From the NCBI GenBank assembly GCA_964468345.1, contig CAYXVZ010000025.1, forward strand, positions 5,328-69,327: 64,000 bases of DNA, read 5' to 3'. A model generated the notes under the pieces. That model worked only from the letters and a program-made list of their open reading frames with translations, was not told the origin of the DNA and made no database searches. Positions within the stretch are counted from its first letter, which is position 1. Every line of letters starts with the position of its first letter. Made by a program: the position numbers and the translations under genes. The DNA comes from an uncultured Heliobacteriaceae bacterium (GTDB taxonomy: Bacteria; Acidobacteriota; Blastocatellia; RBC074). Shown one piece after another: positions 17,560-56,210 of the stretch.

Positions 17560-17917
17560 AACGGGACGATCAGATGATCATTACGCCGCGCCTTCCCCAC
17601 GACGACGAAACGCACGCAACGATTTTTCCTTCCGATAACTTCTCTCCGCAAAATGTCTTAGCGCCATCGCGCACATGCTGATTTAAAACAAATTTTACGC
17701 CCACGTATTTTTTCAGCCGAGGGTCATCACTCATAGGGCAATTCAGCGACGATCGATTTTCGATTTCCCCGAACCCCCGTACCAAATCGATCAGCGCAAG
17801 AGTAGAGAATCATAACGAAGCAAACCATTCGAAATTTTTCACGCGCGAATCGCCGCGCGGGGAACAGGTCGAGGTGTGTTCGATTGTGCAGGCGCTGGGA
17901 AACATGGACTGACAAGA
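17560..17917 (+). promoter_or_regulatory. low-GC non-coding leader upstream of the glycosyltransferase operon
   Basis: About 360 bp with no credible ORF and an obvious drop in GC (runs such as TTTAAAACAAATTTTACGCCCACGTATTTTTTCAG). Lies immediately 5' of 17918. Confidence 0.4.
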
Positions 17918-19171: not shown

Positions 19172-19178
19172 GGATTCC

Positions 19179-22549: not shown

Positions 22550-22589
22550 GGGCGCTATTTGTGCCTCACCATAACGGAGGAAAGAAAAA

Positions 22590-22680
22590 TTAAAAGGCAA
22601 AAGGCAAATATCAAAAGGCAAAAAGATTGCCGGAAAGTCGATGTGATAAGGCGAGGTTCGCACTTTTGCCTCTTGATTTC
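22590..22680. repeat. GCAAAAG-family palindrome, copy 3
   Basis: TAAAAGGCAAAAGGCAAATATCAAAAGGCAAAAAG ... CACTTTTGCCTCTTGATTTC, after the stop of the heparinase-like gene. Confidence 0.8.
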
Positions 22681-22760
22681 TTTGACAGGGGGCCAATCTT
22701 ATCCTGCTCTGATTTATCGGTCTTGAATTTTTAGATCGGTTTGCAGTTGCGTGTACGGTC

Positions 22761-22844
22761 AGCCACGAATGCACACGAATAAGCACGAATGACGCTACGC
22801 CAGATCATTAAGTTCATTGGTGTTCATTCGTGAATATTCGTGGC
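22761..22844. repeat. CACGAAT-repeat palindrome upstream of the kinase/GT/ABC operon
   Basis: GCCACGAATGCACACGAATAAGCACGAATGAC ... AGTTCATTGGTGTTCATTCGTGAATATTCGTGGC: three direct then three inverted CACGAAT units, 60-150 nt upstream of the 22906 start. Confidence 0.75.
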
Positions 22845-22905
22845 AAATAATTCTCTAAATTTTCATACACTGAGATGAAAATTGCTCTAGGAGTGCCTGA
22901 AACAA

Positions 22906-24372
22906 ATGATTACGCAAGCAGTACCAAATTGCGATTCCATGCTGCCGCAACTCGATTGGGTGTTGAACCCGGCGCGAATGCGGCTGATTTTTGCCGAAGC
23001 CCTTTTTGCGGAATCGGCGCGATACCGGATTGCGGAATGCGAAATTCTGCAAACGCGATACAAGCCAGGCAAAAACTGTCTGGTCAGCTATGGGATAAAA
23101 ATCATCGACGCCGAAACCGGCGAAGGCTTCACGCAAATGCTGTGCGCGCGGATCTATCCGCCCGAAGCCAGCCGCTCCCGCTTTGCGAAGACGTTTCCGC
23201 ATCCGGCGGCACCCGCGCCTTTCAAGGCATCGGTGATTCATCTGCCCGCGCTCGAGATGATCGTCTGGCTGTTTCCCTGCGAGCGAAAATTGACGGGCCT
23301 GCCGCAACTTGCGGACGCGGGGTTGCTCGAACGAGAGATTCTGCCGCCGGTGATCGCCGCGAATTTCGGCGCGGAATGGGGAATTGCCGAGTTGGGCACA
23401 GAGATCGTTCATTACGTTGCCGAGCATACCTGCATGCTGCGAGCGCAGGTTCGATTGCAAAATGAGCGGACCGGCGAACAACGGCATGAAACGCTGTTCG
23501 GGAAAACCTATTACAACGACGATGGCGCGCGAAGCTTTCAAACAATGCGGCAATGCGTGGAGCAGAAAGGGCGTGTCGCCTTTGCCCGGCCGCTCGCCTA
23601 TCAGGCGGAAATTCGCACGCTGTGGCAGCTCGGACTTGCGGGGCATTCCCTGCATGAAGAGCGCAAATCAGGCCGAATAGGAAGGAGCTTCCGGCCGCAA
23701 TTGCGAAAGGCCGGCGCGGCGTTGGCGGCATTTCATCAGATTCCGGTGGATGGGATTCCGCGGCAGTCCGAGGCGGAGTGCCTGGCGCGTCTCGACCGGC
23801 TCGACCAGATGGTTGCGATTGCGCGGCCCGCGCACGCGCAACGCGTGGGGGAATTGATCGAGGCCATCAAATGTGGGCGGCCGGCCTTACGGTCCGTCGC
23901 GACCCTGCATGGCGATCTGCATCTGAAAAATTTTTTCCTGAGCAACGGTGAGATTGCCATGATCGATCTCGATAACGTTCACGTAGGCGATCCGCATCTG
24001 GAGCTCGGCAGCTTTCTGGCCAGTCTCTATTTTCAGGAACTGTTGAACGGAAGGCGCCTCGACGCCGCCCGCGTCGATGGACAGGTCTTTGTGAACGCGT
24101 ATGTGGAATGGATTCCATGGACGATCGAGCAGGGGGCGCTGGAATGGGCCACCGCTTATGCGCTGCTGTCCGAGCGCGTCTATCGGCTGATTACGCGATG
24201 CAAGCATGACGACGCATCAATCCTGGAGCGCCTGCTCGATTGCGCGGAGGAACTGATCGCCCGAACGCTTTTTTCGTCGGAAGCGCCTCAAGACGGTGTC
24301 GCCGAACCCACTTTCATGGAAAGGAACCAGCCGCAATGGAATTTGAGCATCTCGTCCGGCCGCAGGGCGTAA
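22906..24372 (+). CDS. aminoglycoside-phosphotransferase (APH)/protein-kinase-like fold protein
   Basis: GGAG Shine-Dalgarno 12 nt upstream. Catalytic-loop-like HGDLHLKNFFLSNGEIAMIDLDNVHVGDPHLELGSF (Brenner motif HGDxHxxN plus a D-loop). Confidence 0.7.
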   Translation: MITQAVPNCDSMLPQLDWVLNPARMRLIFAEALFAESARYRIAECEILQTRYKPGKNCLVSYGIKIIDAETGEGFTQMLCARIYPPEASRSRFAKTFPHPAAPAPFKASVIHLPALEMIVWLFPCERKLTGLPQLADAGLLEREILPPVIAANFGAEWGIAELGTEIVHYVAEHTCMLRAQVRLQNERTGEQRHETLFGKTYYNDDGARSFQTMRQCVEQKGRVAFARPLAYQAEIRTLWQLGLAGHSLHEERKSGRIGRSFRPQLRKAGAALAAFHQIPVDGIPRQSEAECLARLDRLDQMVAIARPAHAQRVGELIEAIKCGRPALRSVATLHGDLHLKNFFLSNGEIAMIDLDNVHVGDPHLELGSFLASLYFQELLNGRRLDAARVDGQVFVNAYVEWIPWTIEQGALEWATAYALLSERVYRLITRCKHDDASILERLLDCAEELIARTLFSSEAPQDGVAEPTFMERNQPQWNLSISSGRRA

Positions 24373-25679
24373 TCACAAGCCTGCAGCATCGACTGCCGAA
24401 TCTGTCGCAGGGAGACTTCGAAATCGATCAGTGCCGGATTCTGCACCTGAATTACAAGCGGTATCTCAAGCCCGCCTCGCGGGACAAGTCCTGTTTATCG
24501 GCCGCCTATCAACTCGAGATCGAGCGCAGGACGACCGGCGAGCGGAATTCGCAGATCATTTACGCCAAGGCTTTTCTCGGGAACCGCAGCTACGGTGAAT
24601 TGGAGAAAGCCTTGCGCCGCCCCTTGCGCCCCACAAAACTTGGCATTCCGCTGGTTCATCTGAACGATCTCGGGATGGTGATCTGGACCTTTCCGAACGA
24701 TCCGGAAATGACATGGCTCGGGGAATTGACGGATGCCGAAGCGGTTCGAAAGCATCTGCCCATCGAGGCCGATGCCGACCTTGAAATCGAGATCGTCAAT
24801 TATCGTCCTGAAGTGCGATGCACCCTGCGGTATGAATTTGACGGCCGCGCGCTCTATGGCAAAACCTTTTGCGACGATCGCAGTGCGGAGATTTACCGGC
24901 GAATGGAATGGCTCTGGACCTTGCAGCGGCAAGCGCCCGGCGCGTTTCCGATGGCGCAGCCGCTCGGCTATGACAAATCGCTGCGCACGATCTGGCAGGA
25001 GGAATGGACCGGTGAACCGTTGGCGGCGGCGCTCACTTTTGAGAATTACGCTGCCATCGCGGCGCAGATCGCAGCCCGGCTCGCTTTTCTGCATCAGGCC
25101 GCCGTGCCGGCCTCTTTGCCCACCGAATCGCGCCTCGATCCGGAGGCACAGCTCGACGAGGTGAAAAAGAAAATCGATAAGCTTTGCATGGCCTTTCCGC
25201 CGCTTGCGTCCCAGTTGCAGCGGCTCGGGACGGAATTGCTGCTCAAACAACGGCTCCTGCCGGAAGCGCGGCCCTGTCTGCTGCACGGGGATTTTCATTT
25301 GCGGCAGATGCGCATCCGGCGGGACGAGATCGCGCTATTTGACTTCGACGAATTGGCCGCCGGCGATCCGGCCGAGGATCTGGCCAACTTCATTGCGGAC
25401 ATGTATGCGCATACCTCGGGATATGCCGTCGAGGAATATCCGTTGCTTCCTTCGCTCGCCCCCAATGTCGCCTCCGCCCTGCTCGATTCGTACATGCAAT
25501 GCACAACGGCCGCCGTCGCGCCGGATCGCCTGCAATGGCATCTGGCCGTGCAATCGCTGACGCGGGCCTATCGCGCCTGGCTGCAGCAGCCGCCTCGCCT
25601 GGAAGAACAGGTGCAATATTTAATCGACTTCGCGTATCAAACGCTGATGAGTTCGACACTCAACGTCAGCAGGATATGA
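24336..25679 (+). CDS. APH/kinase-like fold protein (second, tandem)
   Basis: LLHGDFHLRQMRIRRDEIALFDFDELAAGDPAEDLANFIADMY. Start at MEFEHLV overlaps the upstream gene by 37 nt; the start could be later. Confidence 0.65.
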   Translation: MEFEHLVRPQGVITSLQHRLPNLSQGDFEIDQCRILHLNYKRYLKPASRDKSCLSAAYQLEIERRTTGERNSQIIYAKAFLGNRSYGELEKALRRPLRPTKLGIPLVHLNDLGMVIWTFPNDPEMTWLGELTDAEAVRKHLPIEADADLEIEIVNYRPEVRCTLRYEFDGRALYGKTFCDDRSAEIYRRMEWLWTLQRQAPGAFPMAQPLGYDKSLRTIWQEEWTGEPLAAALTFENYAAIAAQIAARLAFLHQAAVPASLPTESRLDPEAQLDEVKKKIDKLCMAFPPLASQLQRLGTELLLKQRLLPEARPCLLHGDFHLRQMRIRRDEIALFDFDELAAGDPAEDLANFIADMYAHTSGYAVEEYPLLPSLAPNVASALLDSYMQCTTAAVAPDRLQWHLAVQSLTRAYRAWLQQPPRLEEQVQYLIDFAYQTLMSSTLNVSRI

Positions 25680-26860
25680 ACCGATCGATGAAGAGAAAAG
25701 TTTTATTTTATTGCCAGCACGTTCTTGGCATGGGCCATCTGGTTCGCAGCGCCGAAATCGTTCGCGGCCTGATCGATGAAGGAATGTCGGTTTCGTTTCT
25801 CAACGGAGGCGAACTGGCGCCGGGCACCGCGCTGCCCGTGGGAATGCGCGTCGTCATGCTGCCGGCGCTGGCCTCGGATGCGGATTTCAAGGATCTGCGC
25901 GCGGCCGATTCCTCGCTGGCGGTTGAAGAGATTCTGCAACGGCGCAAGGAAATGATTCTCGCGGAATATCGCCGCTTTCAACCGGACGTTCTGGTGATCG
26001 AACTGTTTCCCTTCGGTCGCAGGAAATTCGCTTTCGAATTGATGCCCCTGCTCGAAGAAGTTCGCGCTCACGGCGGCCGGACGAAAATCGTTTGCAGCTT
26101 GCGCGATATCCTGGTGAGCAAGCGCGATCAAACGCGATTTGAGGACAAGGTGATCGCCGCGATGAACGAATATTTCGATCTGTTGCTCGTTCATTCCGAT
26201 CCGCGGCTGCAAACGCTCGATGAAACTTTTCCGCGGATCGGCGAAATCCGAACGCCGATCCGCTATACCGGCTTTGTCGCGGAGCAGGTGGACGAAACAG
26301 CATCCGCGGAGCCCGTAGCCGCGGGACTGGCGCGAATTCTGGTCAGCATCGGCGGCGGCCGGGTCGGCGCGGAGTTGCTGGAATCCTCGATCGCCGCCAG
26401 CCGCGTGCTCGACGGCCTGTTGCCGCATCGGATGCAGCTTTTCGCCGGACCGTATATGGCCGAAGAGGAATACCGGCGGTTGCGGGAACTCGCGGCGCGC
26501 GCGCCGTCGGTTCGATTCAATCGGCATACGACCCGTTTTCTTTCGCATTTGAAAGTCGCGGACCTGTCGGTGAGCATGGCCGGATACAACACCTGCATGA
26601 ATATTTTGACCACCGGAACGCGATCGCTTGTCGTGCCGTTCACGGGCGGAAACAACCAGGAACAGACGATTCGGGCGCAAAAGCTCGAACAGCTCGGCGC
26701 GCTGCGCATGCTTGCGCCCGGTGAGCTCCAGCCGGATTTGCTGGCGCGCCGAATTCTTCATTCGCTGGAGCAGGATCGCGGGCGACCGAGCCCGCTCGAT
26801 CTGAACGGGCGAAAGACCGCCGCGCGCGAAATCGCGCTCTGCGCGGGAGGCAACGGATGA
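25676..26860 (+). CDS. predicted glycosyltransferase, MurG/GT28-like (COG4671-type), paralog of 17918
   Basis: ATGA overlap with the upstream stop. RKVLFYCQHVLGMGHLVRSAEIVRGL.., C-terminal ..LSVSMAGYNTCMNILTTGTRSLVVPF. Confidence 0.7.
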   Translation: MNRSMKRKVLFYCQHVLGMGHLVRSAEIVRGLIDEGMSVSFLNGGELAPGTALPVGMRVVMLPALASDADFKDLRAADSSLAVEEILQRRKEMILAEYRRFQPDVLVIELFPFGRRKFAFELMPLLEEVRAHGGRTKIVCSLRDILVSKRDQTRFEDKVIAAMNEYFDLLLVHSDPRLQTLDETFPRIGEIRTPIRYTGFVAEQVDETASAEPVAAGLARILVSIGGGRVGAELLESSIAASRVLDGLLPHRMQLFAGPYMAEEEYRRLRELAARAPSVRFNRHTTRFLSHLKVADLSVSMAGYNTCMNILTTGTRSLVVPFTGGNNQEQTIRAQKLEQLGALRMLAPGELQPDLLARRILHSLEQDRGRPSPLDLNGRKTAAREIALCAGGNG

Positions 26861-27618
26861 ATGAGGAACTGAGCCTGCTGCGCCAGGCGCTCGAACAACT
26901 CGAACAGGAAGGGCGCGCCATCGACGTTTTTTTCCGGGATGACGACATCGACTGCAAGGAAGATTCGTTGCGGCGCATGCTGGATGTTTTTTATCTCCAC
27001 GGCGTGCCCGTCAATCTCGAAGTCATACCGGGGGCGCTGAAGGATGAGGCCGTCGGCTGGCTGCGCCAACAACTCGCGGACTTTCCCGGCCTGATCGAAT
27101 TGAATCAGCACGGCTGGATGCACACCAATCACGAACTCGAAGGAAAGAAATGCGAATTCGGTCCGTCGCGCAGCTTCGAGCAGCAGATCGCCGATCTGGC
27201 AAAAGGGAAGCACTGCATGGACCAGGCTTTCCCCGGCGCGTGGATTCCGGTCTTCACGCCGCCCTGGAACCGCTGCACGTCCGATACATACCTTGCGATC
27301 GAGGCGCTCGGCTTTCGCGCGCTTTCCAGGGATCGAGGCGATGTGCCGGTGACGGCCTATAACTTCGCGGAGATCTCGACCTCGATCGACATCATCCGAT
27401 GGAAAGGCGAGACACGGCTCAAAGAGCCCGCCGAGATTCTCGCGGCCGTTCGCGAACAAACCCGCATCGACGAGCCGATCGGCATTTTGCTTCATCACAA
27501 GGTGATGACTTCGGCCGCGCTGAGTTTGTTGTCGCTGTTGATCGAAACGCTGAGCCGGTCTCGCTCCGTGCGGTTTCACCGGTTTCAGGATTTGCTTCGC
27601 GACGAAAGGTCAGAATGA
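26857..27618 (+). CDS. polysaccharide-deacetylase-like (NodB-like) protein, tentative
   Basis: ATGA overlap. FFRDDDI (TFDDG-like motif 1), NQHGWMH (H-x-x-x-H-like motif 2), ..FTPPWNR... The assignment is weak. Confidence 0.45.
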   Translation: MNEELSLLRQALEQLEQEGRAIDVFFRDDDIDCKEDSLRRMLDVFYLHGVPVNLEVIPGALKDEAVGWLRQQLADFPGLIELNQHGWMHTNHELEGKKCEFGPSRSFEQQIADLAKGKHCMDQAFPGAWIPVFTPPWNRCTSDTYLAIEALGFRALSRDRGDVPVTAYNFAEISTSIDIIRWKGETRLKEPAEILAAVREQTRIDEPIGILLHHKVMTSAALSLLSLLIETLSRSRSVRFHRFQDLLRDERSE

Positions 27619-29459
27619 AGAGCAAAATCGGGAATCGATTTCGACATATCGTAAAGGCCCATCTGTTGCGAATGAAAGGGCGCGTGCTGCTGGCCGCGCT
27701 TTGCATGACGGCCTATATCGTGGCGGAGCTGCTGGCGCCCTGGCCGCTGAAGCTGATTTTCGATCATGTGTTGCTCGAACGGCCGCTGCCTGCAAGCCTG
27801 GCTCCGATGAGCGGCCTTTTCGCGGCCGGCAAAACGACGGCGGTGGTCGCGCTGGCGGCATCGATTCTGCTGCTCGCATTGCTGCGGGGCAGCTTTTCCT
27901 ATGCGCAGCTCTACCTGACTTCCTTCATCGGACATCGCCTGGTGTTCACGCTGCGGCAGGAACTGTTCGCCCACGTACAGCGTCTTCCGCTCGGTTTTCA
28001 CCAGCGGACGCGGGCCGGAGAACTGCTCAACAAGCTGACCGGCGACACCCAGACGCTTCGCGATGTCTTTTCGGGAGCGGCTCTCGAATTCGCCACGCAG
28101 GTGCTGATTCTGATTGGAATGTTCTGCATTCTGTTTTTGCTCAACTGGCGGCTGAGCCTGGCGGCGCTGGCGACCTTTCCGTTTCTGGGGTACGCCATCT
28201 TTTCGGTCTATCGCAAGATCAAGATCTCGGCGCGCAAACAACGCGAGAAAGAAGGCCGGGTGGCCGCGCGCGTCAGCGAGGTCTTCGGCGCGGTGCATCT
28301 GGTCAAAGCCTTTGCCCGCGAAAATCACGAACAGAAACTTTTCGATGCCGAAAATTCCGAAACGCTGAACGACACGCTGCGCACCTCGCGGCTGGAAGCG
28401 CGCGCTTCGCGCGCGGTCGAGGTGATCAATTCCTGCGGCATCTGCCTCGTCGTTCTGTTCGGCGCGCTGCTGGTGGTGCGCGGCGAAATGACGCCCGGCG
28501 GCGTGTTGATTTTCACGGCGTATCTCACATCGATGTACAAGCCCCTGCGCAGCATGGCGAAACTCACCACGCAGTTTTCACGCGCGCAGGTGAGCGCCGA
28601 ACGCATTTCAATGCTGCTCGAAACCAAAACCGAAGAACACGGCGACGGCGGCGTCAAAGTGGGCCGGCTGCATGGCGACATCAGATTCGGGCAGGTGTGG
28701 TTCGGTTACGAGCCGTCGCAGATGGTCCTGCGCAGCGTCTCTTTCGCCATCCAACCCGGCCAACTGGTGGCGCTGGTCGGCTCGTCGGGCGCGGGCAAAT
28801 CGACGATCGCAAACCTGTTGATGCGGATGTATTCGCCGCAATCCGGCGCCATCTTTATCGACGGCCGGGACGCGCGCGGCATCGATCGACAGTCGCTTCG
28901 CAATCAGATTGCCGTGGTGCTGCAGGATTCGCTGTTGTTCGGCTTTTCCATTCGCGACAACATCGCCTATGGCAAGCCCGGCGCGACGATGGAAGAGATC
29001 GTGCTTGCGGCCAAACACGCGCACGCGCACGAATTCATTCTCGGGCTTCCCGATGGGTACGACACGATGCTCGGCGAACGGGGTTGCACGCTTTCCGGCG
29101 GACAACGCCAGCGCCTGTGCCTGGCGCGGGCGCTGCTCAAGGAATCCTCCATCGTTCTGCTGGATGAGCCCACGGCCGCGATCGATGCCGAATCGAGCGC
29201 CCTGATCGATCGAACCATTGCCGCGTGGCGGCGGGGCAAGACCACGCTCGTCATCACGCACTCGTTTTCGAATATGCAGAAATACGACAAGATCATCGTC
29301 CTCAAACAGGGAAAGGTTCTCGAAATCGGCACGCATCAGCAACTGCTCGCCGCGCGGGGATATTATTTCGATCTGTACCGATTGCAGGGCCGCGGCGGCG
29401 ACGACTCCCCGGCCCCGGCTCCGCCCCGCTATCGGGAACAGAGCATCATCAATCTATAG
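27615..29459 (+). CDS. ABC exporter, fused TMD-NBD (MsbA/type-I exporter-like)
   Basis: ATGA overlap. Six TM helices, then Walker A GSSGAGKST, Q-loop, signature LSGGQRQRLCLARAL, Walker B IVLLDEPTAAID, H-loop LVITH. Confidence 0.85.
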   Translation: MKSKIGNRFRHIVKAHLLRMKGRVLLAALCMTAYIVAELLAPWPLKLIFDHVLLERPLPASLAPMSGLFAAGKTTAVVALAASILLLALLRGSFSYAQLYLTSFIGHRLVFTLRQELFAHVQRLPLGFHQRTRAGELLNKLTGDTQTLRDVFSGAALEFATQVLILIGMFCILFLLNWRLSLAALATFPFLGYAIFSVYRKIKISARKQREKEGRVAARVSEVFGAVHLVKAFARENHEQKLFDAENSETLNDTLRTSRLEARASRAVEVINSCGICLVVLFGALLVVRGEMTPGGVLIFTAYLTSMYKPLRSMAKLTTQFSRAQVSAERISMLLETKTEEHGDGGVKVGRLHGDIRFGQVWFGYEPSQMVLRSVSFAIQPGQLVALVGSSGAGKSTIANLLMRMYSPQSGAIFIDGRDARGIDRQSLRNQIAVVLQDSLLFGFSIRDNIAYGKPGATMEEIVLAAKHAHAHEFILGLPDGYDTMLGERGCTLSGGQRQRLCLARALLKESSIVLLDEPTAAIDAESSALIDRTIAAWRRGKTTLVITHSFSNMQKYDKIIVLKQGKVLEIGTHQQLLAARGYYFDLYRLQGRGGDDSPAPAPPRYREQSIINL

Positions 29460-29501
29460 GCAGAAGCTTTTCCTCGATAACTTCTCATTCCGGAGAAAAA
29501 C

Positions 29502-32135
29502 ATGTTCAGTCTGAAATCGGCGATGGCTCCGCTGGGGCTCGCAATCGCCTTGCCATTGGTGTGTCTTGCGCAGAATACGGTTGCCGAATTGCCGGGAAAC
29601 TGGCCGATCCGCACGCCCAAATGGACGCAGGAAACGAAGACGTCCGGCCTGACGGGCACGGTGGAAGATCCAACCGGCGCCGTCATTCCGAATGCCGCGG
29701 TGACGCTGACGGGAAAAACGAACGGCCAGGTCAAAAAAGTCGTGGCGGACGCGGCGGGCGGTTTCAGCATTTCGGACGTGCCCGCCGGCGATTACATTCT
29801 CAAGGCAAAGGCGGAAGGCTTCGAATCCGCGGAGCGGGAGCTGAAAGTCGGCGCGGGGCCGATGGCGCCGATTCAACTGCAACTTCGCATTGCAGCCAAG
29901 GGCGAAGAGGTTAATGTGAGCGGCAAGAGCCGCGATGAGGAAGATCGCATCACGCTCGATCGCAACGCCGATCGACTGACGCTCGATGAAGACCTGCTCA
30001 AATCGCTGCCGTCGAACGCCGACAATATTCTCGGCGTTGCGGGCAATTTCGTTTCGCCGGGAGCGCTCGGCGGCGAAGGCCTCACCATCAGCGTCGATGG
30101 CGTCGAATCGGGCGGATTGTCGCTGCCGGCCAATTCGATCAAACGGCTGCGCATCAATCGCAATCCCTATTCGGCCGAATTTCGCCGGCCGGGCAAGGCC
30201 CGCATCGAAGCGCAGACCGATGAAGGCTCGTTGCGGCGTTTTCGGGGAAGGTTCGCAATGTACGCGCGAAACTCCGCGTTCGATGCGCGCAATGCCTTTG
30301 CGCGGACGCGCCCCGACCTCGACCGAAAGCTGTTCGAAGCAAATCTATCCGGCCCGATTCTCGCGAAGCGGATGGCCTTTCTGATCAGCGGCGAACGCCT
30401 GCTCAATGACGAAAGCGCGATCATCAATGCCCGCACCCTCGCCGGCCCGGTCGTGTCGAACGTCGTGACGCCCGAACGGCGAACCGGCTTTCTGGCCCGG
30501 TTGGAATATCGCCCCCGGGACAGCCACACGCTGTCGCTGCTGTACAACTATCGCGATCAGCTTGAAAGCAATCGCGGCATCGGCGGATTGCGCCTGGCCG
30601 AGCAGGCGATCAATACGCGGCAGCGAATCAACCGGCTGCAGTTCACCGATCGGCTGGTTCTTTCGCCCCGGCTGCTGAATGAATTTCGCGTTGTGGCGCA
30701 GCGTGAAAATCTGATTCGCGGCATGGCGGGCGCTTCGCCGGCGATCGTCGTCATCGGCGCCTTCACGGGCGGCCCGGCCGCGACCTTTCGAAAAGTCGAT
30801 GAAACCTCCGTGCGCATTGTGGACATCGCAAGCTATGTGGCCGGCCGGCATTCGCTCAAATTCGGCGGCGAGTTTCGCCCGAATCGCATTGCTGCGACCG
30901 ATCAATCGAATTTCGCGGGGACCTTCGAATTTTCGAGCCTCGATCAATTCGCGTCACAGCGGCCGTTTGTTTATCGCATCAATCGCGGCCTGCCGCAGGT
31001 CCTGTTCTCGCAGAACGAAGTCGCCGGTTTCATTCAGGACGATTGGAAGCTGCGCCGCAATCTGAACGTCGTGTTCGGCGCCCGCTATCAATGGCAACAG
31101 AATCTGGAAGACCGGAACAATATCGCGCCGCGATTGTCTGTGGCCTATCAGCCGGGCGGCGATCAAAAGACCGTGATTCGCGCCGGCATCGGCATGTTTT
31201 ATGAGCGCGTCGCCGAGGAAGTCACACAACGCGCCCGGCTTTATGACGGCGCGCGCATTCGCGAAACGGTGATTGCCAATCCGTCCTTTCCGATTGCGTC
31301 GCAACCCGCGGGATCGCAACCGCCGCCCAGCCTCGTTCGCGTCGCTCCCAACCTGCGCGCGCCCTATCTGTGGCAGGCAGGCGTCAGCGTCGAGCGCGAA
31401 CTGCGCAAGGGAACGCAACTCACCGTCGAATATCAGGCGCTCAACGGGCGCAAGCTGCTTCGCTCGCGCAATATCAACGCGCCGCTGCCGTCGACGGGCC
31501 TTCGTTTCGATCCGGCATTCCTGAATATCAATCAGGTGGAATCCTCGGCGGCTTCGCGCGGGCATTCGCTGGGACTGACCGTTCGCACACAGATCGGCAA
31601 GCGATTGCAGGCCATGGCGCAGTATGTTTATTCGCGGAACCGAAACGACACGAGCGGCCTGTTTTCCCTGCCGGCCAACAACTTCGATTTGCGGCCGGAA
31701 TGGGGCCGCGCCGATTTCGATCAACGACATCGTTTTAATCTGACCGGCACGGCGATGCTGCCCGCCGATTTTCAAATCGGAACGATTGTGAGCTTCGGGT
31801 CGAGCCTGCCCTATGACATCACGACGGGTTTTGACGACAACCGCGATTCAGTGGCGAATGACCGGCCCGCGGGGGGGACGCGCAATCTGGGACGCGGCCC
31901 GAATCTGGCCAGAGTCGATCTGCGGCTGACGCGCGCGTTTCGCATTCCGCGCCTGCTCGACCGGGGCCGGGATTCGACATCGAACAACCTCGAATTCAGC
32001 ATAGACATTTTCAATCTTTTCAATCGGGTCAATTTCAATAATTTCATCGGCGCGCAGAGCTCGCCCTTCTTCGGACGGGCCGCCGCCGCGGCCGAAGCGC
32101 GGGCATTGCAGTTTTCGAGCCGGTATAAGTTTTAA
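29502..32135 (+). CDS. TonB-dependent-receptor-like outer membrane protein with N-terminal CarboxypepD_reg domain
   Basis: Signal peptide. TGTVEDPTGAVIPNAAVTLTG..GQVKKVVADAAGGFSISDVPAGDYILKAKAEGF (CarboxypepD_reg). Long beta-barrel region ending ..FSSRYKF (terminal Phe). Confidence 0.8.
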   Translation: MFSLKSAMAPLGLAIALPLVCLAQNTVAELPGNWPIRTPKWTQETKTSGLTGTVEDPTGAVIPNAAVTLTGKTNGQVKKVVADAAGGFSISDVPAGDYILKAKAEGFESAERELKVGAGPMAPIQLQLRIAAKGEEVNVSGKSRDEEDRITLDRNADRLTLDEDLLKSLPSNADNILGVAGNFVSPGALGGEGLTISVDGVESGGLSLPANSIKRLRINRNPYSAEFRRPGKARIEAQTDEGSLRRFRGRFAMYARNSAFDARNAFARTRPDLDRKLFEANLSGPILAKRMAFLISGERLLNDESAIINARTLAGPVVSNVVTPERRTGFLARLEYRPRDSHTLSLLYNYRDQLESNRGIGGLRLAEQAINTRQRINRLQFTDRLVLSPRLLNEFRVVAQRENLIRGMAGASPAIVVIGAFTGGPAATFRKVDETSVRIVDIASYVAGRHSLKFGGEFRPNRIAATDQSNFAGTFEFSSLDQFASQRPFVYRINRGLPQVLFSQNEVAGFIQDDWKLRRNLNVVFGARYQWQQNLEDRNNIAPRLSVAYQPGGDQKTVIRAGIGMFYERVAEEVTQRARLYDGARIRETVIANPSFPIASQPAGSQPPPSLVRVAPNLRAPYLWQAGVSVERELRKGTQLTVEYQALNGRKLLRSRNINAPLPSTGLRFDPAFLNINQVESSAASRGHSLGLTVRTQIGKRLQAMAQYVYSRNRNDTSGLFSLPANNFDLRPEWGRADFDQRHRFNLTGTAMLPADFQIGTIVSFGSSLPYDITTGFDDNRDSVANDRPAGGTRNLGRGPNLARVDLRLTRAFRIPRLLDRGRDSTSNNLEFSIDIFNLFNRVNFNNFIGAQSSPFFGRAAAAAEARALQFSSRYKF

Positions 32136-32175
32136 CGATTGACATCATGACGCGACCTTACCTATCGTACCGTCC

Positions 32176-32757
32176 ATGACGGACTATATAGGTCTCTCTG
32201 ATGCCGAGTTGATTTCAATGTGCCTCAAGCAGGATGCCGGTGCATGGGAAGCCCTGATTCAGAGATACCACAGGCTCATCACTTCCATCACATTCAAATT
32301 CGCCCTTACGGCCGAAGACGCCGCCGATATTTATCAACTGGTGTGCATGCGGCTCTATCAGCAGATGGCGGGGCTGCGAAAACAGGAAAAGCTCAGTTCC
32401 TGGGTGATCACCGTCACGGTCCGCGAATGCTGGAAGCTGAAGAAACACCCCCTGCTGACGAACTCCCTCGATGCCCAGGCCGAGGCGGTCGGTTTTGAGC
32501 TGGCCGATGAACGAACGGTGCCGTTCGACGAATCGCTGGTCCTGATCGAAAAGCAGCACCAGATTCGGCGCGCGATGGAGCTCTTGCCTGAAAATTGCCG
32601 TCGCATGCTCGAAATGCTGTTCTTCGAAGACGAGCCTGCCTCCTATACCGAAATCAGCCAGCGGCTCGGGACGCCGGTCCCCAGCATTGGGCCGACCCGG
32701 GCCCGGTGCCTGGAAAAAATGAAACAATCCCTCAAGACCGTCGGCTTTTTACGCTGA
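32176..32757 (+). CDS. ECF-family RNA polymerase sigma factor
   Basis: Region 2 (..ALIQRYHRLITSITFKF..AEDAADIYQLVCMRLYQ..) and region 4 HTH (LPENCRRMLEMLFFEDEPASYTEISQRLGTPVPSIGPTRARCLEKMK). Confidence 0.85.
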   Translation: MTDYIGLSDAELISMCLKQDAGAWEALIQRYHRLITSITFKFALTAEDAADIYQLVCMRLYQQMAGLRKQEKLSSWVITVTVRECWKLKKHPLLTNSLDAQAEAVGFELADERTVPFDESLVLIEKQHQIRRAMELLPENCRRMLEMLFFEDEPASYTEISQRLGTPVPSIGPTRARCLEKMKQSLKTVGFLR

Positions 32758-32840
32758 CAATGTATTTTTTTCCCGTACCTGGCTCACTCATATGCCGGCC
32801 GGAAGGAGTGTCTTCGGCTTGCGCCCATGTCCAGCAACCC

Positions 32841-33491
32841 ATGGAGCTTCTGATTATGAAATGTCCTTCGATTGATCGATGGCTGAGCTACACACAAAAT
32901 CTGCTGCCCGAAGCCGATAAAGCTTTAATGTTCACGCACCTGCAGGAAGGGTGCGGAAATTGCAAAGAGAACCTGCAGTGGTTGGATGAGGTCGGGCGGG
33001 TGGCCCGGCAGGATCGATCATTTTTACTCCCCGAAGAAACCGTAAAAGGCATGGTGGCATGGTTCCGGTCGCAACCGGCGCCGGCTGGCGGCAAGCTGCG
33101 CCAACTGGTGGCAAGCCTGCTTTTTGACAGTGTTTTGCCGCTTCGCGAAGCCGCCGTTCGAAACGATTCAGCGGCATCCGTGCAGGCGGCCAGCCGGCAA
33201 ATGTTGTTTCAGACGGAAGGCTACGACATCGATCTTCGGTTCGAGTCCCTCGAAACGAGTCAGCAGGAAGACCTGCTCGGGCAGATTGTGTCTCAGGCGG
33301 AGCCGATTCCGGCTACAGAAACCGTGACAGTGCGCTTGTTGCAGGAAGAAGGGGAGAGCGCGATGGTTGAAGCGGATGCCTCGGGATTTTTCCGATTCGC
33401 GGGGATTTCCTCGGGCGTTTACGATCTGAAAATTGAGATGGCGGACGTCGAGATCCTGCTCAGCGAGATTCCAACCGCGCGGAAGAAATAA
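32841..33491 (+). CDS. putative zinc-finger anti-sigma factor with C-terminal CarboxypepD_reg-like beta-sandwich
   Basis: Directly downstream of the ECF sigma. HLQEGCGNCKENLQW (ZAS-like HxxxCxxC). C-terminal ..VTVRLLQEEGE..ADASGFFRFAGISSGVYDLKIE. Start 32841 or 32856. Confidence 0.55.
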   Translation: MELLIMKCPSIDRWLSYTQNLLPEADKALMFTHLQEGCGNCKENLQWLDEVGRVARQDRSFLLPEETVKGMVAWFRSQPAPAGGKLRQLVASLLFDSVLPLREAAVRNDSAASVQAASRQMLFQTEGYDIDLRFESLETSQQEDLLGQIVSQAEPIPATETVTVRLLQEEGESAMVEADASGFFRFAGISSGVYDLKIEMADVEILLSEIPTARKK

Positions 33492-33516
33492 TTCAGAAGT
33501 TGTTGCTGCATCCCGA

Positions 33517-36375
33517 ATGAAAATGGAAGTGACAAATAAATCGACGATACCCGAACTGGTTCACAGGCTGATCGATGCTTATCTTGGGACCGCGAACCAG
33601 GCGGCGGTCCCGAAGGGGGATATCGATTATCCGCTGATGGAGCAGTTCAAACGGGAAGTCGATCAATGGATTCGATCGGACGCGCGCCGCGCGCTGCAGA
33701 TCGCGGAACTGGCCGAGTCGCTTTCGAAAAAGGCGAGCGACCCGCGCGCCCGCGCGCTGGGAGCGCGGATGCGGGCGATGGCGCTGCACGTGCAGAGCCG
33801 ATATGCCGAAGCATTGGAATCTTATGAACAGGCGCGGTCACTCTATGCCGCCGCCGGTTGCGATGTGGATCGGGCGCGCGTGGAGCGCGCGATGGTGGAT
33901 GCCTGCATTTATCTGGGCGGCTATGATGACGCGCTTCGGCTGGCCGAGCAGGCGCGCGAAGTGTTCACGCGGCATCATGAAACGCTGCTGCTGGCGCAGC
34001 TCGAATCGAATGCCGGCAATATTTATCACCGGCTCGATCGCAATCTGGAGGCGCTGGCCTGTTATGACCGCGCCGACCGCGAATTTGCGGCGCTGGATGA
34101 CCGCGACGGCCTGGCCCGCGTTTCCTTCAATCGCGCGAACGTCTATTGCAATCTCGACGATTATCAGCAGGCCGAAATTCTTTACCAGCGCGCTTACGAT
34201 CTGCATACGGAACTGGAAAATCCGACCGGAGCCATGCAGGCCCGCTATAGTCTCGGGTACCTGCATTTTCTCCGCGGCGCTTATCACCAGGCGATGCGAA
34301 TCCTGGCCGAGGTGCGCATCGAGGCGATTCAACTCGGCGACGAACAGACGGCCGCGCTCTGCATTCTGGATCTGGCAGAAATTTACCTGCAGCTCAACGT
34401 GCTCGATGACGCCGCGACGCTCGCGACGGATGCGCGGCGCCTGTTTGAGCGGCTGGAGATGCGTTATGAAGCCGCCCGCGCGCTGACCTTTTTGGGCATT
34501 GCCAGCCTGCGGCAGGAAAAGCTGGCGGATGCGGAGCGCGCTTTCATCGAGGCGCGAAAGGAATTCGAGGCCGAGGGCAACCAGGTTCACCTGGGAATGA
34601 TCAGCCTTCACCAGGCCGAGATGCATCTGTTTCGCGAAGATTGGCTGCAGGCGAAGGCGCTGGCGGCCGAGGCGCGAGAGATATTCGGCCGGCAGCAGTT
34701 GCGCGCCCGCGCGTGCGCGGCGCAGATCGTGGAAGCCCGCGCCCTGCTCGGCAGCGGCGACCGTTCGCGCGAGCAATGCGAAACCATCGAGGCCTTGTGC
34801 GGCGAACTGGATCTGCACTGGCTCAAGGTGCAGGCGCATGAATTGCTCGGCGATGTCGCGCTGGCGGAAGGTCAGGCGGCGAATGCTTATGAGCAATACG
34901 CAGCGTCGATCGCCTGCATCGAACAGATCCGCAGCAGCATTCGCGTCGACGAGTTCCGCAGCGCCTTTTTCCGCGACAAGCTGCGCGTCTATGAAAAACT
35001 AATCAGTCTTTGCCTCGACGAACAAACGCCGCACCGCCAGGCCGAAGCCTTTTATTATCTGGAAGCTTCCAAATCCCGCACGCTCGTCGATCTTCTGGTC
35101 AATGAGATCGGCATGATGCCCGAGGCCGCCAGCCCGCAGGCCGCCGAACTCCATCGCCGCTGGAAAGAGCTTCGCGAAAAGCTGCACTGGCACTACAACA
35201 AAAGCAATCGCATCGAATCGCAGGGAAAAAGCCGTCTGCTCGGCGCCGATGAACGCGCGCGGCATGAGATTGCCTCGTGCGAGCAGGAGCTGTCTGCCCT
35301 GATGCGACAGTTGCAATACCAGGATCCGCATTTCCAGTGGTTGAAAAAACATTCGGGCATCACGGTCGAGGAACTGCGCGGCCTGCTCGATGAGGATGAA
35401 ATCGTCCTCGAGTATTATTTCGATCGGAACCAACTCGAAATCTTCGTGATCGATTGGCATTCGTTGTGCGTCCGGACAGGACCGGTCGATGTGCAAGCCA
35501 TCGGCGAACTGGTCCAAAAGCTTCGCTTCCAACTGAACCGATTCCAATACGGTTCGACCTATGTCGCGGCGCACGCGGCCCGCATGCTCAGGGAAGCGCG
35601 CGAATGCCTTCATCAATTATGGCAGGCCTTGATAGCGCCCGTGGCGGATTTGCTGCGCGAGAGAAAGCTGATCATCGTCCCTTTCGGCGGACTTCACAAC
35701 GTGCCTTTTCAGGCGCTCTATGACGGCGAACGTTATCTGATCGAAACCAATGAGCTGACGCAGATGCCCAGCGCGCAGCTTTTGAAATCCTGCTCCATCC
35801 CGGCGTCGAGGAATTATGAGCATGCCCTGCTCATCGGAGCGGCCGATGAAATTGCGCCCCAGATCACCCAGGAAACCCAGGCCATTCGCAACATCTTTCC
35901 CGAAGCCCGCTGTTTTCTCGGCGAAGAGGCGACCGGCGAGGCGCTGCTGCGGCACGCCGGTGAAAGCGATATTCTTCATATCGCCAGCCATGCCGTCTTC
36001 CGGCAAGACAATCCGATGTTTTCCGCGTTCAAGCTGGCCGATAAATGGCTCAATTTCTATGACATCTGCGGACTGAAACTGCCTGCCTCGCTGGTCACGC
36101 TCAGCGGTTGCAGCACAGGAACGAGCCGGATCTCCGCCGGCGATGAGCTGTTGGGATTGGCCCGCGGTTTTCTCACCGCCGGCGCGGATTCGCTGGTGGT
36201 CAGCTTGTGGGAAGTCGATGACGTCGCGACGGCCCGGCTGATGACCAGCTTTTACCAGCAATTACGATGCGGAAAAAACGCCGCCGCCGCCCTGCGGCGC
36301 GCCGTCATCGAGATCCAGGGAATTCACGAACACCCGTATTATTGGGCCCCGTTCGTGCTGATTTCCCGAATCTGA
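33517..36375 (+). CDS. TPR-repeat / CHAT-domain protein (caspase-like protease)
   Basis: N-terminal ~600 aa of TPR-like repeats. C-terminal CHAT with His/Cys dyad context ..DILHIASHAVFRQDNPMFSAFKL.. and ..LVTLSGCSTGTS.., ending ..HPYYWAPFVLISRI. Track start 33433 is over-extended. Confidence 0.8.
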   Translation: MKMEVTNKSTIPELVHRLIDAYLGTANQAAVPKGDIDYPLMEQFKREVDQWIRSDARRALQIAELAESLSKKASDPRARALGARMRAMALHVQSRYAEALESYEQARSLYAAAGCDVDRARVERAMVDACIYLGGYDDALRLAEQAREVFTRHHETLLLAQLESNAGNIYHRLDRNLEALACYDRADREFAALDDRDGLARVSFNRANVYCNLDDYQQAEILYQRAYDLHTELENPTGAMQARYSLGYLHFLRGAYHQAMRILAEVRIEAIQLGDEQTAALCILDLAEIYLQLNVLDDAATLATDARRLFERLEMRYEAARALTFLGIASLRQEKLADAERAFIEARKEFEAEGNQVHLGMISLHQAEMHLFREDWLQAKALAAEAREIFGRQQLRARACAAQIVEARALLGSGDRSREQCETIEALCGELDLHWLKVQAHELLGDVALAEGQAANAYEQYAASIACIEQIRSSIRVDEFRSAFFRDKLRVYEKLISLCLDEQTPHRQAEAFYYLEASKSRTLVDLLVNEIGMMPEAASPQAAELHRRWKELREKLHWHYNKSNRIESQGKSRLLGADERARHEIASCEQELSALMRQLQYQDPHFQWLKKHSGITVEELRGLLDEDEIVLEYYFDRNQLEIFVIDWHSLCVRTGPVDVQAIGELVQKLRFQLNRFQYGSTYVAAHAARMLREARECLHQLWQALIAPVADLLRERKLIIVPFGGLHNVPFQALYDGERYLIETNELTQMPSAQLLKSCSIPASRNYEHALLIGAADEIAPQITQETQAIRNIFPEARCFLGEEATGEALLRHAGESDILHIASHAVFRQDNPMFSAFKLADKWLNFYDICGLKLPASLVTLSGCSTGTSRISAGDELLGLARGFLTAGADSLVVSLWEVDDVATARLMTSFYQQLRCGKNAAAALRRAVIEIQGIHEHPYYWAPFVLISRI

Positions 36376-36424
36376 CAAGCAGGCGAAGACTCCCCCGACT
36401 TGCGTTTGCAAAGGAGATCGATTC

Positions 36425-37666
36425 ATGACACAGAGAATGTTACAGACCTGCTTTCTTCTTGCGATATTCCTTTTCTGGGTTGGATTCAACGAAGCCGGCG
36501 TGAAAACGCTCGCCTCGAAAGGCGCCAAAACTCCTGGCGCGCCGGATAGCTATCGCGCCGGCGAAGTGGTTGTGGGCATGGTTGCCGGCGGAGACGTGCA
36601 GGCGCTGGTCGCCCGGCACGATATGACGATCAAGGACCGCATCCCGGGGACCGATCAATGGTTGTTGGCGACGCCCCGGACGGTCGAGGAAACGCTCACA
36701 CGTCTCGCAACCGAAACCAGCGTGCTTTTCGCGGGGCCAAACAACAACTTTCGTCATGCCGAAATTCGCCAGCGCAGCCAGGCATTCATCGATCAGCGCA
36801 GCCAGGCGTTCATCGATGGCCAGTCGCCGGTCGATTTTTACGGCCAGCCCTCGCTTCCTCGATTGCATCTGGCTGAAGCGCATCAGATCAGCATGGGCTC
36901 CGGCGTTCGCGTCGCCGTGATCGATACCGGCATCGACTTTGCGCATCCGGCCTTCGCGGGACGGATTCTCTCGCCATATTACGATTTTCTCGACAACGAT
37001 CCCGATCCGCAGGAAATGTTGGGAGGCGCCGGCTCGGGCCACGGAACTTTCGTCGCCGGCCTGGTCGCGCTAGCCGCGCCGGGCGCGATGATTATGCCCC
37101 TGCGCGCGTTCGGCCCCGACGGCAGCGGAAACACCTTCGACATCGCCCGCGCCATTCGTTACGCCGCCGATAATGGCGCCCAGATCATCAATATGAGCTT
37201 CGGCCTGCTCGGCCGCGATGCGATGATCGAAGATGCGCTTTCCTATGCCTATGAGCGCGTCTATATGGTTGCGGCGGCGGGGAACGACAACCAGTACGCC
37301 ATTCATTTTCCGGGCGCGCGATCGAGCAAGACGCTCAGCGTGACTTCGACCGATCACCTCGACCTTCGGGCGCCCTTTTCGAATTATCATCGCGATATTC
37401 ATGTTTCCGCGCCGGGCGTCGACCTGTTTAGCGCCTATCCCGGAAAACGCTGGGCGCGTTGGAGCGGCACTTCTTTTTCCACCGCTCTCGTCACGGGCGA
37501 AGCTGCCCTCGTGCTGCGCCTGAATCCTTCGCTCGGCCGCAAGGATCTAAATGAGATTCTCACTAATGCCGGCGTCAATATCGATGGCCTGAATCCCGGT
37601 TTTGCCCGAACCCTCGGCGAGGTCCGCATCGACTTCCTCTCGGCGGTTCGAAGGGCGCGGGAATAA
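36425..37666 (+). CDS. secreted S8-family (subtilisin-like) serine peptidase
   Basis: Signal peptide. Catalytic triad motifs VAVIDTGIDFAHPAF (Asp), GHGTFVAGL (His), GTSFSTALVTGEAAL (Ser). Contains an in-frame 24-nt tandem duplication (IRQRSQAFIDQRSQAFID). Confidence 0.85.
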   Translation: MTQRMLQTCFLLAIFLFWVGFNEAGVKTLASKGAKTPGAPDSYRAGEVVVGMVAGGDVQALVARHDMTIKDRIPGTDQWLLATPRTVEETLTRLATETSVLFAGPNNNFRHAEIRQRSQAFIDQRSQAFIDGQSPVDFYGQPSLPRLHLAEAHQISMGSGVRVAVIDTGIDFAHPAFAGRILSPYYDFLDNDPDPQEMLGGAGSGHGTFVAGLVALAAPGAMIMPLRAFGPDGSGNTFDIARAIRYAADNGAQIINMSFGLLGRDAMIEDALSYAYERVYMVAAAGNDNQYAIHFPGARSSKTLSVTSTDHLDLRAPFSNYHRDIHVSAPGVDLFSAYPGKRWARWSGTSFSTALVTGEAALVLRLNPSLGRKDLNEILTNAGVNIDGLNPGFARTLGEVRIDFLSAVRRARE

Positions 37667-52532: not shown

Positions 52533-52552
52533 TCCTTCACGCCTCTGCCACG

Positions 52553-55825: not shown

Positions 55826-55899
55826 GCGATCCAGTCCCTCTCGCTCTCATTCCGCCGCGTTTCCTCTCGGCTTGTGCCTTCCTTGCATGGCTTGATCTA

Positions 55900-56016
55900 G
55901 ATCAGTGCAAACAACTTTGGGACAAAGCTTTTACCACGAAGAAACGAAGAGCACGAAGAAAGACGAAAGAATAAGCCTTCTCTCTTTCTTCGTGCTCTTC
56001 GTTTCTTCGTGGTTGT
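55900..56016. repeat. CACGAAGAR-nonamer palindrome with conserved 5' flank
   Basis: CAGTGCAAACAACTTTGGGACAAAGCTTTT then ACCACGAAGAAACGAAGAGCACGAAGAAAGA-(19 nt)-TCTTTCTTCGTGCTCTTCGTTTCTTCGTGGT, a perfect 31-bp stem. After the STK gene. Confidence 0.85.
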
Positions 56017-56210
56017 GCCTTTCTTCGTTGTCCTGATTTAGTTGTAAAAAATCCAGTGACTGTCCCGGCCGGAGAGGCAATTCAATTTGCCATTAAAATC
56101 GGGTCGGCTATAATCCCCCCGCTTTCGGCGGTCTTTCTTGGCGGAACCTTTGAACAATACAATTCGATACCGTCGCGTGGCCATTCGTTCCGGCGCTCTG
56201 TGATCGAAGC

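Follow-up and report, generated by a model that had tools for sequence, protein, structure and literature searches.

Proteolysis has been proposed or demonstrated as a means of controlling extracytoplasmic function (ECF) sigma factors in several bacterial systems. For the ECF54 family, the genomic context described by Huang et al. 2015 and Casas-Pastor et al. 2021, taken here as summarised in PMC8999054, comprises carboxypeptidase-, subtilase- and CHAT-domain proteins conserved beside the sigma factor, and regulation by proteolysis has already been proposed there; Casas-Pastor et al. give the family as actinobacterial and without a clear regulator. In Myxococcus xanthus, DdvS and DdvA form an ECF pair in which the anti-sigma factor itself bears a TPR-CHAT domain, and self-cleavage by CHAT is proposed but unproven (PMC11506125). 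In the account of bioRxiv 10.1101/2023.06.23.546230, cutting of a sigma-binding partner by a sensor protease has been demonstrated for Craspase/Csx30/CASP-sigma and for CalpL/CalpT/CalpS, and the same account includes a PCaspase that cleaves a sigma factor in vitro. Here we describe a gene module that is related to these systems. It lies in a stretch of 64,000 nucleotides (contig CAYXVZ010000025.1 of assembly GCA_964468345.1, positions 5,328 to 69,327 of the forward strand; hereafter the window) from an uncultured Heliobacteriaceae bacterium that GTDB places in the Blastocatellia of the Acidobacteriota. The module, which we call module 1, occupies positions 32176-37666 and consists of four co-directional open reading frames (ORFs) on the + strand, for an ECF sigma factor, a small protein, a TPR-CHAT protein and an S8 subtilase. 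The features of module 1 are as follows.

32139..32168, + strand: P1, a sigma70-type promoter, TTGACA-N18-TATCGT, found by consensus scan
32176..32757, + strand: ECF (group IV) sigma factor, 193 aa, assigned from Sigma70_r2 and TIGR02937
32762..32791, + strand: P2, a bipartite motif, GTATTTT-N16-CACTCAT, in the sigma/anti-sigma spacer and conserved across loci, a candidate ECF-dependent promoter
32856..33491, + strand: the small protein, a predicted soluble anti-sigma factor, 211 aa, assigned from its anti-sigma fold, its C3/H28/C33/C36 site and its gene position
33517..36375, + strand: predicted cytoplasmic TPR-CHAT caspase-like cysteine protease, 952 aa, assigned from Pfam CHAT, TPR_12 and its dyad
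36425..37666, + strand: predicted exported S8 subtilase with a signal peptide and a prodomain, 413 aa, assigned from PF00082 and a signal-like N-terminus

We are highly confident that these genes belong together as a conserved module of an ECF sigma factor, a soluble anti-sigma factor, a TPR-CHAT protein and an S8 subtilase, in a context of the ECF54 type. Its conservation was surveyed by scanning an alignment of the CHAT protein against one genome per species, which gave 18 loci, mostly from metagenome-assembled genomes (MAGs) of Blastocatellia with one locus from Thermoanaerobaculia and one from Anaerolineae. The homologues of the small protein were found in the order sigma, small protein, TPR-CHAT and S8 in six differing flanking contexts. 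When the loci were annotated with custom hidden Markov models (HMMs) for the four module proteins, this order was present in every related locus with enough flanking sequence, which amounts to 17 distinct full loci (Blastocatellia and one Anaerolineae), and four contig-truncated loci agree with it. The S8 gene is the fourth of the module in all cases, and the order is kept even in the Anaerolineae MAG, whose CHAT protein is only 32% identical to that of the window. Since the same order recurs with differing flanks, the adjacency of the genes is not due to chance. The idea that four unrelated genes happen to lie side by side has nothing in its favor beyond the prior, is contradicted by the identical order in the full loci and by the retention of the gene set in Chloroflexota and Actinomycetota relatives, and was rejected; we give it practically no credence.

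The original prediction, which had been made from the letters of the DNA, had claimed the four genes as a module, and the synteny of the sigma, anti-sigma and CHAT genes in related genomes bears this out. All four ORFs are present at the coordinates given in it, save that it started the small gene at 32841. The starts of the homologues and a GGAG sequence 9 nt upstream favor 32856 (MKCP...) as the most likely start. Its domain assignments were examined by family searches of the window proteins in Pfam, NCBIfam and PADLOC. The CHAT, TPR and Sigma70_r2 domains were recovered, Sigma70_r4_2 fell slightly below its cut-off, and zf-HC2 gave no match in the window sequence. The ~950-aa TPR-CHAT protein with a His/Cys dyad and the secreted subtilase, as it had described them, both stand, the former with its dyad invariant in orthologues and the latter with an S8 family match and a signal-like N-terminus. 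Its "zinc-finger anti-sigma with a CarboxypepD_reg-like domain" holds as to the anti-sigma type, but the canonical zf-HC2/ZAS (zinc-binding anti-sigma) motif is absent and the CarboxypepD_reg match is sub-threshold.

Variants of the layout were also seen. In locus L026, the sigma gene overlaps the start of the CHAT gene and the small gene is absent, and in L028 a DUF5666 gene sits between the sigma and small genes. Locus L029 (1733-9406) contains a sigma-small fusion (432 aa), a TPR-CHAT gene, a second sigma gene located directly before a second TPR-CHAT gene with no small protein between them, and an S8 gene. In L003, L004 and L012, which come from a MAG of the Blastocatellia, the coding sequence of the sigma factor runs over two reading frames (7076-7908 in L003), owing either to a frameshift or to a mistake in the assembly, while the rest of the module is intact. 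An Opp-type peptide ABC importer (two permeases and a SBP_bac_5 binding protein) is encoded at 13162-17154 of the window, 15 kb upstream of the module, and directly adjoins the module, in either orientation, in nine other loci (L003, L005, L007, L008, L014-L016, L019 and L024). This proximity may reflect an ancestral gene order or a functional link between a secreted protease and peptide uptake.

The sigma factor belongs to the ECF group (group IV) by its matches to Sigma70_r2 (37.9 bits against a cut-off of 24, E=1.5e-9) and to TIGR02937 sigma70-ECF (61.6 bits against 42.9), and the match to Sigma70_r4_2 of 23.9 bits is slightly under the cut-off of 25.7. Its orthologues are 49-60% identical. 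At 193 aa it is a minimal ECF sigma factor without an extension to remove.

The small protein is where module 1 departs most from textbook families. It consists of an N-terminal class I anti-sigma domain, a disordered linker and a C-terminal eight-stranded beta-sandwich, which in the full-length structure model is Ig-like and resembles CarboxypepD_reg, although the Pfam match of the window protein to this family is sub-threshold (E=7e-4). The N-terminal bundle of three to four helices superposes on known anti-sigma domains. A profile search of the PDB ranked the RsiW anti-sigma domain first (E=0.21) and also listed the N-terminal domain of DdvA (E=1.7), both of which are weak matches. The putative metal site C3...H28-x4-C33-x2-C36 (C-x24-H-x4-C-x2-C) is one residue longer than the ZAS signature: the canonical spacing is H-x3-C-x2-C, and here it is H-x4-C-x2-C. 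Across 84 members of the family, down to ~20% identity, H28, C33 and C36 do not vary, and C3 is kept in at least 90%. No zf-HC2 match was obtained for the window protein, and this Pfam model matches 3 of 17 family members with a best E value of 0.039. We therefore treat the small protein as ZAS-like with a variant spacing and a putative zinc site. The linker (residues ~90-110) is modeled with low confidence, yet it carries an invariant FDS...VR motif. None of 83 members contains a membrane-helix-like segment.

The family of the small protein is large (~100 full-length clusters at 50% identity), and its gene always adjoins the sigma gene where it is present. A natural sigma-small fusion, P0240, was found on two contigs and constitutes Rosetta-stone evidence of a physical partnership. 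Taken with the fold and the gene position, these findings suggest that the small protein is an unusual anti-sigma factor, predicted to bind and inhibit the adjacent sigma factor.

The third protein of module 1 matches Pfam CHAT (PF12770) with 220 bits (E=5e-65) and TPR_12 with E=1.2e-17. Its TPR array spans residues ~90-690 and its CHAT domain residues 696-949. Residues H825 and C865 form a dyad that is invariant in 6 orthologues (50-62% identical), and the combination of a CHAT domain with a His/Cys dyad is that of a clan CD caspase-like peptidase. The CHAT fold and the predicted protease activity rest on the Pfam match and the conserved dyad. Among proteins of solved structure, only the Craspase 'CHAT domain protein' chains are related to the CHAT domain in sequence (E ~3e-3), and a tblastn search of the plasmid collection with the CHAT protein returned only generic CHAT matches of less than 30% identity. 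Neither the window protein nor its orthologues have an N-terminal hydrophobic, signal or membrane segment. As both the small protein and the CHAT protein lack signal and membrane segments, they are predicted to share the cytoplasm with the sigma factor.

The S8 subtilase appears to be the only exported protein of module 1. It matches Peptidase_S8 (PF00082) with 134.9 bits (E=4.6e-39), and the motifs VIDTG, GHGT and SGTS of the Asp/His/Ser catalytic triad are visible in its translation. It has a Fervidolysin_NPro-like N-prodomain (E=1.1e-6), and its hydrophobic, signal-peptide-like N-terminus is kept in orthologues. Between its prodomain and its catalytic domain, the octapeptide QRSQAFID occurs twice, owing to an in-frame 24-bp tandem duplication at 36770-36817.

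Two conserved promoter-like motifs flank the sigma gene, and both are first described in this analysis. In the window, P1 ends 7 nt before the sigma ATG. Of 17 non-redundant loci, 12 have TTGACA-N17/18-TATCGT at this place, ending 6-8 nt ahead of the sigma ATG, and within these loci it occurs at no other position. As P1 abuts the ATG, its position implies that the sigma transcript is leaderless, and transcription from P1 is probably constitutive. The P2 motif, in its general form GTATTTT-N15/16-CACTCAT, occupies the spacer between the sigma and small genes in all 17 loci of the Blastocatellia type, exactly or with at most 2 mismatches, and its -35-like half (TGTATTTTTT) also follows the sigma gene of the Anaerolineae locus. 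The window contains two exact matches to P2, compared to 0 in 100 shuffles. The second copy stands at the head of a cluster that ends shortly before module 1.

17705..17734, + strand: second exact copy of P2, at the head of the glycosyltransferase/exporter cluster
17876..32135, + strand: candidate regulon cluster, assigned from Pfam and linked to the module only through the shared P2 and adjacency

This cluster encodes a GT28 and a GT4 glycosyltransferase, a heparinase II/III-like protein, two APH-type kinases, another GT28, a DUF2334/deacetylase-like protein, an ABC exporter and an outer-membrane barrel with a CarboxypepD_reg domain. In L007, L015 and L024, P2 precedes the orthologous GT28-GT4-heparinase-APH cluster despite the different placement and orientation of this cluster, and in L019 a copy with 2 mismatches precedes the same cluster. 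Further copies were found before DUF5666 genes (L001 and L022) and before a Wzz/polysaccharide-export cluster (L005). The reading of the T-run in P2 as merely a terminator of the sigma gene was considered and rejected, as the same motif with fixed spacing heads clusters located far from sigma 3' ends. By its position and conservation, P2 is a candidate target promoter of the module sigma factor that would drive the anti-sigma, CHAT and S8 genes. Because P2 is shared by the module and the adjacent cluster, these data suggest that the glycosyltransferase/exporter cluster is part of a local regulon.

A comparison with the systems introduced above shows that module 1 matches none of them in full. 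Its neighborhood is that of ECF54 as summarised in PMC8999054: a sigma factor beside a CarboxypepD_reg-like protein, a subtilase and a CHAT protein. It is the same kind of system as this context but differs from it in several respects. ECF54 is described as lacking an anti-sigma factor, whereas the small protein of module 1 has an N-terminal anti-sigma domain with a C-H-C-C site; ECF54 is described as actinobacterial, whereas module 1 belongs to the Blastocatellia of the Acidobacteriota; and module 1 has a fixed order of sigma, small protein, CHAT and S8 genes and an apparently exported S8. We group module 1 with ECF54 by gene context, and the link between the sigma factors is the 33% identity to a sigma factor of Nonomuraea gerenzanensis in an ECF54-like context, which is the highest-scoring (lowest E value) relative of the window sigma factor in the plasmid collection. 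In this actinobacterium, the S8, sigma and small genes form an operon in this order, and the TPR-CHAT gene is divergent from it. The small protein (153 aa) is devoid of the zinc-finger domain and corresponds to residues 81-196 of the small protein of the window in an hhalign alignment (probability 71%, E=3.9e-5). The S8 protein has no signal peptide, and its gene runs up to 7920, the point at which the sigma ORF starts. Two Streptomyces sigma matches from the same collection (H26 and H28) were considered as CHAT-linked relatives and rejected, as they have no CHAT context; among the top sigma matches, only that of Nonomuraea has one.

The DdvS/DdvA pair is similar to module 1 in that an ECF sigma factor is placed under a C-H-C-C zinc anti-sigma domain tied to TPR-CHAT (PMC11506125). 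However, DdvA is one polypeptide in which a membrane helix joins the zinc domain to a periplasmic TPR-CHAT that lacks three active-site helices, and it acts with RseP (PMC11506125). Module 1 has two predicted soluble cytoplasmic proteins instead of a single membrane-spanning chain, the H-x4-C spacing and an added beta-sandwich. Type III-E Craspase comprises gRAMP/Cas7-11, Csx29, Csx30, Csx31 and CASP-sigma/RpoE. In this system, as presented in the preprint cited above, a cytoplasmic TPR-CHAT protein (Csx29) cleaves a sigma-binding partner (Csx30) and frees an ECF-type sigma factor, which is the arrangement to which module 1 is likened. The CHAT protein of module 1 scores 42.5 bits with the Csx29 model NF041237, far from its cut-off of 300, and the small protein, with its classical anti-sigma domain, is in our judgement unrelated to Csx30. 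The Craspase signal is a target RNA on the Cas complex, which is not possible for module 1 without Cas7-11, crRNA and an array. The tandem-array check found no CRISPR array in the window, no cas-like domain, CBASS or known defense system was found among the window proteins scanned, and the window scans for tRNA and Rfam RNA found none. The CalpL/CalpT/CalpS system (type III-B associated) comes close to the proposed logic of module 1 in that, according to the same preprint, a soluble sensor protease cleaves a soluble anti-sigma factor and frees an ECF sigma factor. CalpL is described there as a Lon-type protease with a SAVED sensor activated by cyclic oligoadenylate, whereas module 1 has a caspase-like CHAT protein whose sensor would be the TPR array, and neither a cyclase nor CRISPR lies nearby. 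Finally, the small protein resembles RsrA, ChrR, RsiW and RslA in its helical anti-sigma fold and its putative Cys/His zinc site, but differs from ZAS proteins of the RsrA/ChrR type by its H-x4-C-x2-C spacing in place of H-x3-C-x2-C, its added C-terminal Ig-like domain and its obligate CHAT linkage. The original prediction was thus right in stating that there is no CRISPR beside the module. Its suggestion of an undescribed ECF mechanism does not stand, as the ECF54 proposal, DdvA/DdvS, CalpL/CalpT/CalpS and Craspase-Csx30 all precede it.

We propose that the cassette is a stand-alone, wholly cytoplasmic ECF signaling system. The sigma gene would be transcribed constitutively from the housekeeping-type promoter P1 as a leaderless mRNA, and the sigma factor would be kept inactive by the adjacent soluble anti-sigma factor, whose N-terminal zinc-bound helical domain would clamp it. 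The TPR-CHAT protein would act as both the sensor and the protease, reading the signal with its ~600-residue TPR array and cutting the anti-sigma factor with its His825/Cys865 site, likeliest in the linker that carries the FDS...VR motif, while the beta-sandwich would serve as the docking handle for CHAT. The freed sigma factor would then drive the P2 promoters, resulting in feedback on the anti-sigma, CHAT and S8 genes with the secreted subtilase as an output, and would also drive the glycosyltransferase/ABC-exporter/outer-membrane-barrel cluster for the production of a surface glycoconjugate or polysaccharide. Cleavage of the anti-sigma factor by CHAT is plausible in view of the gene linkage and the precedents described above. 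The gene content, the synteny, the anti-sigma fold with its metal site, the conserved dyad, the location of the proteins and the two conserved motifs come from the analysis itself, whereas we infer that the sigma factor is bound, which protein CHAT cuts, what kind of signal is read and that this sigma factor reads P2. We hold the model as a whole, from the constitutive sigma factor and its zinc-dependent hold through the CHAT cut in the linker to P2 firing at the glycoconjugate cluster and elsewhere, tentatively, at a little under an even chance.

Several observations weigh against this model. The CHAT and S8 genes lie downstream of a putative sigma-dependent promoter and could therefore be mere outputs. 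Textbook ECF promoters have an AAC-type -35 and a CGT-type -10 element, which P2 does not resemble, so that another factor could read it. The sigma gene directly precedes the CHAT gene, with the small protein absent, in L026 and in the second pair of L029, and the zinc finger is missing in Nonomuraea; hence, the protease might act on the sigma factor or on another target. Redox-sensing ZAS proteins such as RsrA and ChrR sense stress directly via a Cys/His metal site. The invariant Cys/His metal site of the soluble anti-sigma factor would also suit a zinc- or thiol-switch ECF pair, in which the small protein senses redox or metal stress and TPR-CHAT and S8 are merely regulon cargo for protein turnover or extracellular protein scavenging. 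The position of both protease genes behind the candidate sigma-dependent P2 and the fact that an exported S8 cannot meet cytoplasmic partners point the same way, and the Opp-type importer that adjoins the module in nine loci fits protein scavenging. However, the linkage between CHAT and the sigma factor outlasts reshuffling across three phyla, even without the zinc-finger domain or the small protein, and a simple redox switch would have no need for the conserved beta-sandwich and linker motif of the anti-sigma factor. We consider such a switch the main rival of the model, though a rather unlikely one.

A protease cascade, in which the substrate of CHAT is the sigma factor itself, the precursor of S8 or something else and the small protein is an adaptor or inhibitor (cf. 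PCi and securin), would account for the direct sigma-CHAT adjacency in L026 and L029 and for the Nonomuraea S8, which is devoid of a signal peptide and whose gene abuts the sigma gene. It also has a parallel in the in vitro cleavage of a sigma factor by PCaspase, as given in bioRxiv 10.1101/2023.06.23.546230. It sits poorly with the minimal length of the sigma factor, which offers no extension to remove, with the signal peptide of the Acidobacteria S8 and with the anti-sigma fold of the small-protein N-terminus, and is improbable in our view. Both the DdvA/DdvS regulon (PMC11506125) and Craspase (in the account of bioRxiv 10.1101/2023.06.23.546230) are defense systems, which raises the question of whether module 1, like Craspase or DdvA, serves against phages or in abortive infection; CHAT would then sense infection and trigger the defense. 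The S8 protein does match the PADLOC 'subtilase' model (E=1.4e-25), but PADLOC gives no model match for the sigma factor or the small protein and only the generic 'TPR' model for CHAT (E=3.6e-5). Furthermore, no cas genes, CRISPR arrays or CBASS were seen in the window, and the module resides in a stable chromosomal setting of sugar-metabolism and peptide-transport genes common to the genomes rather than in a variable island. A role in defense thus appears very improbable.

Beyond the anti-sigma cleavage model for this locus, it is possible, and we suggest it with reserve, that TPR-CHAT proteases are ancient general partners of ECF sigma factors. The Acidobacterial cassette would then be a caspase-like switch in which a cytoplasmic TPR sensor-protease cleaves a new class of soluble anti-sigma factors, with a variant zinc domain and a beta-sandwich handle, and which controls a surface glycoconjugate and a secreted protease. 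Craspase and DdvA would be specialised offshoots of this housekeeping logic, and ECF54 would have the same small protein as its regulator. If the cleavage model holds, the cassette would be the first non-CRISPR, non-defense case of a caspase-like protease as the signal-receiving step of an ECF pathway. It would assign a function to one conserved family of the abundant and uncharacterised bacterial TPR-CHAT proteins and explain the control of the 'regulator-less' sigma factors of the ECF54 type. Comprising four genes with two candidate promoters and one region where cleavage is predicted, the cassette is compact and experimentally tractable. It hints at a circuit by which Blastocatellia, which are poorly studied soil Acidobacteria, regulate their production of envelope polysaccharide and exoprotease.

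The window also contains a second sigma/anti-sigma/CHAT trio, module 2, with the following features.

56211..56810, + strand: divergent ECF-like sigma factor (TIGR02989 E=1.3e-13 and TIGR02937 E=2.4e-5, both below cut-off)
56909..57928, + strand: predicted single-pass membrane anti-sigma-like protein with a periplasmic TPR domain (helix near residue 121, TPR matches)
57964..61302, + strand: predicted exported or membrane-anchored TPR-CHAT protein, 1112 aa (CHAT E=1.3e-57, N-terminal hydrophobic anchor or lipoprotein-like signal)
61360..62199, + strand: conserved 279-aa protein without a family match, placed by its position after the second CHAT gene

A second copy of the module had been predicted at 51966..62199. 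The trio is indeed there, but the sigma factor beside the kinase, which had been taken as its sigma factor, does not belong to it. Directly behind that sigma factor (51885-52532; Sigma70_ECF E=1.3e-51, TIGR02999 E=1.4e-58) lies a Ser/Thr kinase of 1090 aa that carries seven WD40 repeats (52553-55825), and the two look like a separate, kinase-regulated ECF pair, apart from the CHAT modules. A copy of P2 with one mismatch, GTATTGT-N15-CACTCAT, was observed at 51766-51794, ~90 nt upstream of the kinase-linked sigma gene. It could hint at a sigma cascade, but we do not claim it, as ~0.1 such matches are expected by chance.

The sigma factor of module 2 has a region-4-like helix-turn-helix visible in its sequence, and its true start may be a Met ~14 codons downstream of 56211. 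The trio (56211-61302) is conserved in three other contexts, where the position of the sigma factor is taken by a ~186-192-aa protein (L033 and L035) or a 235-aa protein (L034). Residues 152-339 of the membrane protein, which make up its whole periplasmic domain, are 43% identical to residues 56-243 of the CHAT protein in an ungapped alignment (E=1e-38). Such similarity suggests homotypic pairing of the two proteins through their homologous domains, and hence a DdvA-like system split in two genes. With its membrane helix and envelope location, module 2 is a closer analogue of DdvA than module 1 is, even though it has two genes in place of one. The 279-aa protein has no Pfam, NCBIfam or PADLOC match and no signal peptide; proteins of 292 aa (L035) and 287 aa (L033) without a Pfam match lie downstream of CHAT and are likened to it by size and position. 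The window therefore holds two differing sigma/anti-sigma/TPR-CHAT designs, one cytoplasmic and one of the envelope, and their presence in a single window strengthens the general link between CHAT proteases and ECF signaling.

Several other elements of the window were noted. Two intergenic elements (8685-8803 / 9007-9090 and 63094-63193 / 63215-63300) each consist of a tandem array of ~8-12 units of 10 bp (GAAGTCTNGA) and, 40-210 bp further on, an array in reverse complement. Their arms are 74-84 nt long and 77-85% complementary, and the center of the first element is occupied by a perfect 28-nt palindrome (8877-8934). An inverted array of a differing 10-bp unit lies between the sigma and anti-sigma genes of L023 (~4960-5080), and the inverted arrays of this type, including that of L023, may represent a family of repeats or mobile elements. 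The longest ORF at 38092-39618 is on the - strand (508 aa) and has no family match. The + strand gene that overlaps it at 38185-39606, for a GT4 glycosyltransferase (E=9.6e-34) paralogous to that at 19149-20573, is probably the real one. Finally, a GC-rich, hairpin-forming 77-bp unit (AGCCCCGTGCAACGGGGCT...) is repeated 1.9 times at 12502-12652, between the genes of an E1 dehydrogenase and a MOSC-domain protein.

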